In this document: positions 3,061 through 5,366 of the stretch, in pieces
Layout of the letters: every line of letters starts with the position of its first letter
Numbering within the stretch: position 1 is the stretch's first letter
Assembly: GCA_946403735.1 (NCBI GenBank)
Contig: CAMJAZ010000001.1
Span: 1 to 24,196 of the forward strand
DNA length: 24,196 nucleotides
Reading direction: 5' to 3'
Origin: an uncultured Selenomonadales bacterium
GTDB lineage: Bacteria; Bacillota; Negativicutes; Selenomonadales; Selenomonadaceae
Notes under the pieces: model-generated
Told to the model about the DNA's origin: nothing
Database searches by the model: none
What the model saw: the letters and a program-made list of their open reading frames with translations, nothing else
Translations under genes and position numbers: made by a program

Positions 3061-3459
3061 CGCGTTCGGCTGGTTGACTTCAGCTCTGCAAAATGCAACA
3101 TTGAAATTCCCAGCTACGTCTCAAAATATGTTTATTTAACTTCACAGGCGATTATTGCGAAAGGATGCAACTAGTTATAATAATAACGATTTTTAGCGAT
3201 GTCAACGGAAACAAATATTGTAATTATATATTGCCAAAAGAAGAATTGAATAATGAAAGCAAAAAAAGTTTGACCGTACCTTCGACGCAAGCCACTAAAC
3301 AAAGTGACGGCATTCTTACCATAAACAAAATTTTTTTCGGAGAATCTAAAATTATCGTAAAGATAAAGTTTACAGACGGTAGAAAATTTTTGACATGTAC
3401 AAAAAAATTCAGTTTCCTTTTTGTAAGTATCAAAAATTCTTCTGTCGTCTGGAAGTTAC

Positions 3460-4207
3460 CGAAGACGCGCCACGAAAGCCCTTTAGCTGTGGGGATGAAA
3501 CGCTGGAGGTGATTAAATGAAGACCTTTCGTTTTAAATTATATAAATCTGAACGAAATGAAAAATTGAATAATAAAATAAACGCGGCAGGTCTCATTTAT
3601 AATCATTGTATTGCCCTACATAAAAGATACTACAAGATTTTCGGCAAATACTTAAATAAAAATCACCTGCAGAAACATCTTATTAAGCTTAAGAAAATAC
3701 CTAAATTCAGTTAAGTGAGGAAGTATAAGTCATTCACGCTAAATTTCCAATCACGAAGAATAAGCGGTAAAGTCAAAACGGTAACGCGAACAGGTAAAAG
3801 CGTCGGTTTCGACTTCGGCTTGCAAAAATCTTTCACGAATCACGACTTCCATTTCAAATTAGCGCGTCAACTTTGTTTGGAATACGAAACCATTTGCATA
3901 GAAGATTTAAATATAAAAGGAATGCAAAGGTTGTACGGCAAGAAAATCGGCGATTTAGCCTTCAGTGAATTTGTAAACATTTTAAAATACACGGCGACAA
4001 AGTTTGATGTGTTAAGGATTTAAATGTACGTGAATGGATATGTACGAACTGCGAAACAGAACAGGATAGAGACAGAAACGCCGCGATAAACATTTTGAAT
4101 TTTGGGTTGGGATATCGACCCATGCAGTAGACCGAGTAAGACTTAATTTTTTAAGCATCGATTGTTGATAGCACAATCCCCCGCCTTTAGGCTCGGAAGT
4201 ATGTCAA
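3460..4207 (+). mobile_element. IS200/IS605-family (tnpB-only, IS1341/IS608-like) element, internally deleted and non-autonomous, 748 bp
   Basis: Preceded by TTAC (3456-3459). AAAG at +16..+19 (3475-3478) is followed by a damaged left hairpin ccctttagctgtgggg. Right hairpin tcccccgcctttaggctcggaa, terminal TCAA at 4204-4207, tnpB remnant inside. TTAC/AAAG/TCAA are the established ISHp608 cleavage and guide tetranucleotides. Confidence 0.85.
3517..4130 (+). pseudogene. tnpB: TnpB (IS605 OrfB, RNA-guided endonuclease family) pseudogene with several internal deletions
   Basis: RBS GGAGGT at 3505-3510. N-terminal MKTFRFKLY...IYNHCIALHKRYY, RuvC-I GFDFGL, RuvC-II ICIEDLNIKGM, and in a shifted frame WICTNC...[10 protein letters not shown] (second Zn-finger half and RuvC-III). 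Stop at 3712-3714 and frameshift near 4011-4020. Confidence 0.9.
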
Positions 4208-4225
4208 AACATATTATGGAAACGG
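4085..4225 (+). ncRNA. Putative TnpB omegaRNA (right-end RNA) with flank-derived guide aacatattatggaaacgg; boundaries approximate
   Basis: Established: TnpB omegaRNAs derive from the tnpB 3' end and the right end plus the downstream flank. Seen: the tnpB 3' end and right-end hairpin are retained. Expression not shown. Confidence 0.4.
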
Positions 4226-4256
4226 AATAATGTTTTAAATTCATTACCGTCAAGAC

Positions 4257-4385
4257 ATGTTAAAAATTCGCCAGCTGATATTGGGGCATGCGTCGCAAGA
4301 TATAACTAGCCGCGTTTATACGCATAAAATTTTTCAACAACTTTCGGATGCGATAAGTTTAAAATTTTTTAAAAAATTTTTATGA
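4257..4385 (+). pseudogene. C-terminal stub of a tyrosine recombinase/phage-type integrase
   Basis: Translates to MLKIRQLILGHASQDITSRVYTHKIFQQLSDAISL, matching the box II LGH...IT..VYTH motif with the catalytic Tyr. The upstream part is missing (in-frame TAA at 4236-4238). Confidence 0.75.
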
Positions 4386-4457
4386 ATTCTTAATAATTTT
4401 AATTTGGTACGTATAAGGAGTGAAAATAAAAAAATTAAAAGAAAGGCGGTCATAAAA

Positions 4458-4703
4458 ATGACGACACAAGAAAAAATTGAACAAACTAAAGGACTTTTTG
4501 AGGACAAAGAATTTATCGAAAAGTTTTCACAGGTTGCAACGGTAGCTGAGGCGCAGGCACTCTTCAAAAGTTACAGAATAGAAATTTCTGCAGAAGAATT
4601 TAAAATGATTGGCGAAATTGCGCAGGGCATTAAAAGCGGCGAACTTGAAGAAGGTGAACTTCCCGACGATTTGGCAGAAAAAGTTGCAGGCGGTGCAGCA
4701 TGA
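4458..4703 (+). CDS. Nif11-like leader peptide RiPP/bacteriocin precursor (leader + GG + AA, then UGA)
   Basis: ATG at 4458 after GAAAGGCGGT. MTTQEKIEQTKGLFEDKEFIEKF...AEAQALFKSYRIEISAEEF...GELPDDLAEKVAGG matches the Firmicute Nif11-type leader ending in a double-glycine motif. Confidence 0.8.
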   Translation: MTTQEKIEQTKGLFEDKEFIEKFSQVATVAEAQALFKSYRIEISAEEFKMIGEIAQGIKSGELEEGELPDDLAEKVAGGAA

Positions 4704-4895
4704 GTAGGCGACTACATCAAAGGTTTTGCAGCAATCTTGTATGGATTCGCTGGCATAATCGACCAAGTTATCAAGTTGTTCAAAGGTGAAAAGATTGAAA
4801 ACAATCCTCTTGAACAAAATAATTCTCAATCTACCACCAACACCACCACCAACACTACCACGAAAACTTCCCAAAAAACTACTAAAGAAGATTAA
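4704..4895 (+). other. In-frame continuation of the Nif11 precursor beyond UGA (probable core peptide plus Thr/Asn-rich tail)
   Basis: The frame stays open for 63 codons: VGDYIKGFAAILYGFAGIIDQVIKLFKGEKIENNPLEQNNSQSTTNTTTNTTTKTSQKTTKED, ending in TAA at 4893-4895. Confidence 0.7.
4833..4862 (+). repeat. Short 12-bp tandem repeat (accaccaacacc x ~2.5) encoding TTNT
   Basis: accaccaacacc / accaccaacact / accacg read directly from the sequence. Confidence 0.6.
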
Positions 4896-4908
4896 TTGAA
4901 AAAATTAT

Positions 4909-5307
4909 CGAAAAGCGGCGTAATACCCCCTAGCTTTAGCTATGGGGATATAAGCCGCAATTATTGACTTTAGAAATAACATAGCTTAAAATTTAATCAG
5001 CGGTTAGCCTTCCGCTTTATCAAAAACGTGTAAAAAATCAACGGCTCGTGTCTTGCAAACAATGAAGTCGTTTTGGAGTGGGGGCATCCCGTACACTAAC
5101 CCGCACTGTAGCGCGACACTTAGCGATTTTTCGCCAGATTGAGTGAACTTAAAGAAGTGTGTTACAAATAAAAAAAGCAGGCATTTTAGCAGAAAAAGTA
5201 AGCTGAAACCTTCGGGTAACAGTGTAGTGGTAACTTGGCATTGCCTTTGAGAATAAGAACTTAGTTCAAACTTCTCATCAATCCTTCATAAGCGTGGGGA
5301 GTGTCAA
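4909..5307 (+). mobile_element. ORF-less IS200/IS605 derivative (PATE/MITE-like), 399 bp
   Basis: Preceded by TTAT (4905-4908). Left hairpin cccctagctttagctatgggg (4927-4947) is nearly identical to the IS608-type left palindrome, with an outer stem gcggc/gccgc (4915-4919/4954-4958). Degenerate right hairpin tccttcataagcgtgggga, terminal TCAA at 5304-5307. No ORF of 60 aa or more inside. Confidence 0.8.
4964..4992 (+). promoter_or_regulatory. Sigma70/SigA-type promoter inside the mini-IS left end
   Basis: TTGACT (4964-4969), 17-nt spacer, TAAAAT (4987-4992). Predicted TSS near 4999. Confidence 0.7.
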
Positions 5308-5330
5308 AAGCTGAAATATAAACAGAAAAT
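4999..5330 (+). ncRNA. Candidate structured RNA (omegaRNA-like) transcribed from the mini-IS, with flank-derived 3' segment
   Basis: Hand-found pairings: agcgg/ccgct (4999-5003/5012-5016), cacta/tagtg (5094-5098/5225-5229), cactgt/acagtg (5104-5109/5219-5224), gcga-tttt-tcgc (5123-5134), tttagc/gctgaa (5185-5190/5202-5207), acc-TTCG-ggt (5208-5217), tgagaa/ttctca (5248-5253/5272-5277) with inner gaac/gttc. Confidence 0.5.
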
Positions 5331-5332
5331 CT

Positions 5333-5366
5333 GCGCGGCGATTCTTAAATAGAATTTCCGCGCTTT
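5333..5366 (+). terminator. Hairpin, probable (weak) intrinsic terminator
   Basis: gcgcgg/ccgcgc (5333-5338/5358-5363) with inner attct/agaat, followed by only TTT. Confidence 0.5.

Follow-up and report, generated by a model that had tools for sequence, protein, structure and literature searches.

What kind of element is a stretch of DNA that carries transposon ends, a promoter and several RNA stems without a protein gene, and which role could its RNA play? This question is raised by positions 4909-5366 of the window, i.e., the whole stretch of 24,196 nucleotides that was analysed, which belongs to an uncultured bacterium of the Selenomonadaceae (2.1-Mb MAG, 401 contigs, 70% complete). A first-pass annotation, which was made from the letters alone, had described the region as a protein-free IS605 derivative arranged as a stand-alone guide-RNA expression cassette. 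The locus is identified here as a non-autonomous, gene-less IS200/IS605 mini-transposon, whose lineage is common in rumen Selenomonadaceae.

Boundaries and surroundings of the element

The element comprises the 399 bases of 4909-5307. It is a protein-free IS200/IS605 derivative (PATE), inserted 3′ of TTAT without target duplication. In 4909-5366 no ORF longer than 35 amino acids was found, and the longest one, with 35 amino acids, is not conserved among the copies. The left end, folding into an inner hairpin within an outer stem (Table 1), was confirmed as intact, and its type, here called A, also precedes intact tnpB genes of congeners (L047, L054, L045). About 300 nt without coding potential follow the promoter up to the 3′ terminus, the previously noted TCAA at 5304-5307. 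The tip of this right end is common to the element and to tnpB elements. The classification as a protein-free IS605 derivative is therefore borne out, both by the absence of longer ORFs and by ends that are shared with tnpB-bearing elements.

The boundaries were likewise borne out, as TTAT precedes every copy and an orthologous site without the element exists. In the congener G075 (locus L098), whose flanks are 81% identical, the stop codon of the upstream precursor gene is followed by TTAC and then by the sequence that lies 3′ of the right end in the window. Since this empty site joins TTAC directly to the right-end flank sequence, the element can be delimited as 4909-5307. The hairpin which starts 25 bases past the right end (fold of -17.9 kcal/mol, z = -4.1) had been regarded as the terminator of the cassette. 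It is the host's own, because G075 has it conserved despite lacking the element, and it represents the intrinsic terminator of the upstream precursor gene.

Table 1. Features of the gene-less element and its flanks, given in positions of the window.
Feature	Position	Strand	Remarks
TTAT target tetranucleotide	4905..4908	+	precedes every copy, both left-end types
Left end, type A	4909..4963	+	inner hairpin 4926-4947; outer GCGGC/GCCGC stem 4915-4919/4954-4958
Sigma-70-type promoter TTGACT-17-TAAAAT	4964..4992	+	near-consensus match, reads toward right end
Leader ("MID" module), 195 nt	5000..5194	+	H1, A-rich GUGUA stretch, H2, variable 3′ part
Leader hairpin H1	5000-5015	+	stem compensatory between copies
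Leader hairpin H2	5040-5046/5066-5072	+	positions 5-6 vary, compensatory
omegaRNA-type scaffold, 113 nt	5195..5307	+	homology to tnpB 3′ ends and right end; covariation
Scaffold stem 1	5203-5205/5220-5222	+	UUCG-capped tip at 5209-5216
Scaffold stem 2	5229-5233/5241-5245	+	
Scaffold P3	5248-5253/5272-5277	+	encloses small hairpin 5257-5267
Degraded right-end hairpin	5283-5299	+	belongs to scaffold too
Putative 16-20-nt guide flank	5308..5327	+	directly 3′ of right end
Host intrinsic-terminator hairpin of upstream precursor gene	5333..5363	+	outside element; conserved in G075

Further upstream, the window contains a decayed, tnpB-only element of the IS605 family (3460-4207), which belongs to a second tnpB family. 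Its TTAC is followed by a type-A-like left-end hairpin (about 3478-3496) and by an ATG at 3517, which opens an intact N-terminus of 65 amino acids. The gene shows internal deletions as well as two in-frame TGA stops in the Zn-ribbon region (3909-4094), and the right end reads ...GTATGTCAA at 4207. Intact relatives of 369-372 amino acids are encoded by congeners (L042, L043, L045, L047). The gene-less element agrees with this second tnpB family in left-end type A and in the final ~35 nt of the right end, whereas the scaffold of that family differs, and the remnant was accordingly rejected as the donor of the scaffold described below. Between both IS605-type elements lies a double-glycine-leader precursor-like ORF (4404-4895) with an in-frame TGA (4701-4703). 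TGA recoding, which was considered on account of the broken frames in 3093-4895, was rejected because two ORFs of 1679 and 1906 amino acids have no internal TGA.

Scaffold, promoter and leader

The right part of the element (5195-5307) shows homology to the terminal ~75 nt of tnpB together with the right end (L069, C168, C6, and others). In locus L069 of the congener G017, an intact TnpB ORF of 424 amino acids ends inside such a sequence, which continues to the right end, and the tnpB stop codon lies within the same scaffold in L069, C6, C115, C168, C211, L101, and L103 as well. The similarity to the 3′ ends of intact tnpB elements that was anticipated for an omegaRNA could hence be located in this part. 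A seed alignment of 21 sequences, gene-less and tnpB-linked, resolved three helices plus an inner hairpin, with 9 of the 18 pairs being compensatory, and the covariance model R1 was built from it. The scaffold of the window reaches a score of 103.5 bits, which is mid-range. In the alignment of 48 R1 matches, 95.9% of the cells are paired, compared to 78.6% after shuffling and 36-50% when the partners are slid; 13 of the 18 pairs are compensatory with both sides changed, and none of the shuffled alignments of these 48 sequences attains the observed pairing score. The single-sequence fold of the whole RNA is not more stable than its shuffles (z = -0.55). Covarying structure, the second property expected of a guide-RNA scaffold, was thus recovered for 5195-5307.

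The C(UUCG)G tetraloop was correctly recognised in the first-pass annotation; it is located at 5210-5215 and caps stem 1. The tip of this stem is longer and protein-coding in tnpB-linked copies, and is formed by short UUCG- or GAAA-capped stems in gene-less copies. This replacement points to selection on the RNA, and because of it and of the compensatory changes, the RNA of the lineage is considered to have been under selection. The long-range helix 5094-5109/5219-5229 had to be dropped, as it overlaps the 3′ strand of the covarying stem 1 (5220-5222) and is not kept in L013.

Upstream of these RNA structures, the consensus promoter TTGACT-17-TAAAAT is present as annotated. A transcription start near 4999-5001 is predicted, and the transcript would have a length of roughly 310-365 nt, running through the right end into the flank and ending at the host terminator. 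In 14 of 20 mini-elements, a promoter match of at least 10/12 was found 33-66 nt downstream of TTAT. For tnpB-bearing relatives, the best promoter-like matches ahead of the gene have the same location and are mostly weaker than the promoters of the mini-elements.

With a near-consensus promoter directed outward through its right end, the element would also suit the role of a mobile promoter or 5′-UTR donor, which sustains downstream expression after insertion and for which the guide RNA is secondary. Several copies indeed abut the RBS of a co-oriented gene; the right end of the mini-element on C178, for instance, lies directly next to the RBS and the GTG start of a solute-binding-protein gene. 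Furthermore, mini-elements without a scaffold retain the promoter. Two scaffold-less loci of the window's genome (C178:3400-3710 and C123:5640-5815; L002, L003, G000) consist of a leader with H1 and H2 and a right-end hairpin without the omegaRNA stems. The one on C178 keeps left end and promoter, the one on C123 has a left end without hairpin and no promoter. However, the right end of the present copy is separated from the next gene by a strong host terminator. Within 120 nt, only about one quarter to one third of 42 flanks contain a convincing co-oriented start, and several point toward convergent genes. The covariation of the scaffold would also be left unexplained, so that a role as promoter donor is considered unlikely. 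A general bias toward sites upstream of co-oriented genes was considered as well, but was not supported, owing to the noise of the mechanical ORF count.

According to the first-pass annotation, a deletion of tnpB placed the promoter beside the omegaRNA. This is too simple, as a leader of 195 nt, which is unlike tnpB and occurs throughout the lineage, lies between the two. Its hairpin H1 is formed by the stem variants GCGG/CCGC, GUGG/CCAC, and GCAG/CUGC. In other copies the leader has a length of 76-229 nt and combines variable hairpins with a conserved A-rich GUGUA stretch. Mini-elements with either left-end type (A, as in the window, or B), in several genera and in a second family of the class, have it in common, and it is absent from tnpB-bearing relatives. 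In MAFFT alignments of the leader, the H1 arms of types A and B do not fall into the same register. A gene-less copy in a different family of the class (L105, G149:C6:1282250-1282742) has the H1 loop UUAGUCUU and the leader motif GCCGCAGCG...AUGACGGGUA; the leader-bearing lineage is therefore not limited to one genus.

An origin of the leader from eroded tnpB coding sequence was rejected, as no similarity was obtained with blastn, with blastx or with a profile (nhmmer) of the 3′ coding region of tnpB. In addition, no Rfam match was obtained at the gathering score or at E<=1 for the window and ten sister loci, on which grounds a known RNA was rejected for leader and scaffold, including an IStron or known ribozyme in the leader. 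Apart from the conserved leader, the element fits a known element type. A more far-reaching reading, for which the odds are rather low, takes this leader as a functional RNA domain special to gene-less elements, which might load, stabilise or process the omegaRNA without the context of a tnpB mRNA, or might be a separate small-RNA cargo. The PATEs would then be an independently evolving RNA-only lineage that parasitises TnpB. If true, such a lineage would span two left-end types and several genera and would survive where the cognate TnpB is gone.

Copies, cognate TnpB and the putative guide

In the window's genome, related gene-less copies are located on the contigs C55, C178, C123, C286, C4, and C169, while C208 carries an isolated left end. 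The gene-less copies all begin directly after TTAT, nearly all of them carry the promoter at an equal distance, and their 3′ termini read ...GAGTGTCAA or ...GTTCAA. Within the genome, the copies diverge by 10-17%, which argues that the activity of the element is not recent. Searches with R1 gave a genomic count of 10-11 scaffold copies.

In the genus, the element family was detected by blastn in 18 of 24 sampled genomes, the scaffold (R1) in 38 of 60 other genomes and the cognate TnpB in 19 of 60. Beyond the genus, the scaffold was found in further genera and two additional families of the class, where it is mostly linked to tnpB and in one case gene-less with leader motifs. Among the congeners, 11 scaffolds were counted in G013 (92% complete) and five in G007 (99% complete), both with no cognate TnpB; together with G048 and G063, these two genomes form a set with 5-17 scaffolds each, in which the cognate TnpB is absent or a fragment, assembly gaps being possible. 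The RNA elements thus seem to outnumber and outlast their effector, a comparison weakened by gaps in the MAGs.

Heptamer-type repeat arrays (AATTCCT/GAATTAA-like and TACAAGC-like) were observed beside or inside IS605 ends and inside decayed tnpB genes, namely at C298:2880-2930 and C208:4120-4170 of the window's genome (G000), on C289 and C242, at L069:520-610, and in the guide flank on C168. The TACAAGC-type repeat has about 40 sites across the MAG within two mismatches. These repeats may be the same as those in the window's MetH.

It had been suggested that the RNA programs a TnpB encoded elsewhere, and pieces of a cognate tnpB were found in the window's genome. The contigs C298 and C160 end in a left end and the N-terminus of the gene, whereas the contig ends of C6, C115, C168, and C211 hold its C-terminus and the right end; C289 and C242 contain decayed copies. 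An intact cognate tnpB was not assembled in the 70%-complete MAG. As the N- and C-terminal pieces sit at contig ends, the sequences suggest that the cognate gene is present in multiple copies and broken up by assembly. The cognate TnpB comprises the Pfam domains OrfB_IS605 and TNB. It reads IVCGYN at the position of the canonical RuvC-II glutamate and NADVN in RuvC-III, and it keeps the RuvC-I Asp and the alternative Glu region. This matches the description of TnpB clades with a glycine-for-glutamate, "rearranged" RuvC-II (PMC10691335). A comparison with PDB sequences gave no match, and close relatives occur in MAGs of Selenomonadaceae from the ruminant gut, including one named Quinella sp. 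The tnpB genes on C340, C73, and C10 were ruled out as cognates by their differing right ends.

The guide of a TnpB omegaRNA lies directly 3′ of the right end. For the element of the window, this position is taken by the putative guide flank (Table 1), and TTAT would be the TAM of the empty site. The 16-mer guide has no other TTAT-flanked site in the genome within two mismatches, and the guides of the other mini-elements and tnpB copies in the genome likewise have no distant one. Because the guides match their own flanks only, the design fits homing on the own empty site and not the regulation of distant genes. Of the roles proposed earlier, the targeting of the own empty site is consistent with the geometry of guide and TAM, whereas the role with a TnpB-derived regulator has no distant guide match in its favour.

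Taken together, the element is a gene-less PATE whose promoter and scaffold probably serve the TnpB made by other copies. In this mechanism, TnpB of the glycine-for-glutamate RuvC-II type would bind the scaffold and trim the RNA. It would then use 16-20 bases of the flank as a guide against TTAT plus flank, i.e., the element's own empty site, and a lost copy would be restored by recombination. TldR systems, which also use TnpB-type guide RNAs (PMC10705468), offer an alternative, in which the guide RNA would direct a nuclease-dead, TnpB-like repressor to a distant gene and so regulate it. This is highly improbable here: in addition to the exclusive match of all guides to their own flanks, the cognate protein keeps its RuvC-I Asp, alternative Glu region and NADVN (PMC10691335), and the transposon ends are retained.

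State of the present copy

The present copy has an intact left end, promoter, H1, H2, and all three covarying scaffold helices. Its right-end hairpin has lost the 5′ arm and reads CCTTCATAAGCGTGGGG instead of the CCCCCGCC...GGCGTGGGG of other copies; the hairpin is present in the sister copies C55, C178, and L013. A DNA hairpin at the right end is the expected recognition structure of TnpA, as established for IS608. Because of the lost 5′ arm, the present copy is probably fixed in place and immobile. A Y1 TnpA (PF01797) was not found in the MAG (70% complete) and occurs only rarely within the genus (8 of 60 genomes). The mobilisation of this copy by a TnpA in trans, as proposed before, is thus doubtful in view of the degraded hairpin and the missing Y1 TnpA.

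These observations would also agree with an inert relic, i.e., a decaying mini-element which is neither mobile nor used by TnpB and whose promoter and stems are just not yet eroded. The divergence of the copies, the decayed tnpB element 700 bp upstream, and the congeners that hold scaffolds without a cognate TnpB are in line with such a decay. By contrast, promoter, left end, H1, H2 and the three covarying scaffold stems are intact in the present copy and its R1 score is mid-range, the compensatory changes and the tetraloop replacement throughout the lineage indicate that the RNA was under past selection, and pieces of the cognate tnpB reside in the same genome. A relic is therefore a possible but less likely explanation, and the use of the RNA by a TnpB made in trans is the preferred reading.

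The locus offers a well-resolved bacterial example of an omegaRNA-only transposon, for which sharp boundaries, an empty site and a covariance model are available, as well as a cognate TnpB of the little-studied clade with rearranged RuvC-II. It also illustrates the changes that accompany a scaffold freed from coding, namely tetraloop-capped stems, a stronger promoter and an added leader. This helps with the annotation of such repeats in rumen genomes and with the selection of TnpB/omegaRNA pairs for testing.

The underlying principle is not new, as PATEs that encode omegaRNAs and stand-alone omegaRNAs that act in trans have already been published (PMC10055086, PMC10691335). PATEs were defined in Haloquadratum (PMC3119063), and according to Meers et al. 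they "often encode omegaRNAs", on which TnpB from other elements would act in trans (PMC10055086). The closest counterparts are the PATE-like elements of the IS605-family ISGst in Geobacillus stearothermophilus (Meers et al., PMC10055086). They likewise lack a protein gene, share their ends with tnpB-bearing elements and encode an omegaRNA that needs a TnpB made elsewhere, and mobilisation by TnpA in trans is presumed for both. In contrast to them, the present lineage has its own near-consensus promoter and a structured leader of 76-229 nt, its cognate TnpB is of the rearranged RuvC-II type, and its hosts are rumen Selenomonadaceae.

Stand-alone, mobilised omegaRNAs working in trans were described by Altae-Tran et al. 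2021, as summarised in PMC10691335. These OMEGA RNAs also occur without effector or transposase in genomes that hold effector-bearing loci. They were shown to work in trans, whereas such a function is predicted here, and several of the present congeners hold the RNA without a detectable cognate effector. The PATEs of Haloquadratum walsbyi, e.g., HqIRS71 (Dyall-Smith et al., PMC3119063), are archaeal, predate the known guide-RNA role and were described without a promoter or leader. Finally, the guide RNAs of TldR (Wiegand et al., PMC10705468) also consist of a TnpB-type scaffold followed by a guide, but the TldR loci no longer possess transposon ends and are directed at distant promoters, whereas the present element keeps its ends and matches its own flank.
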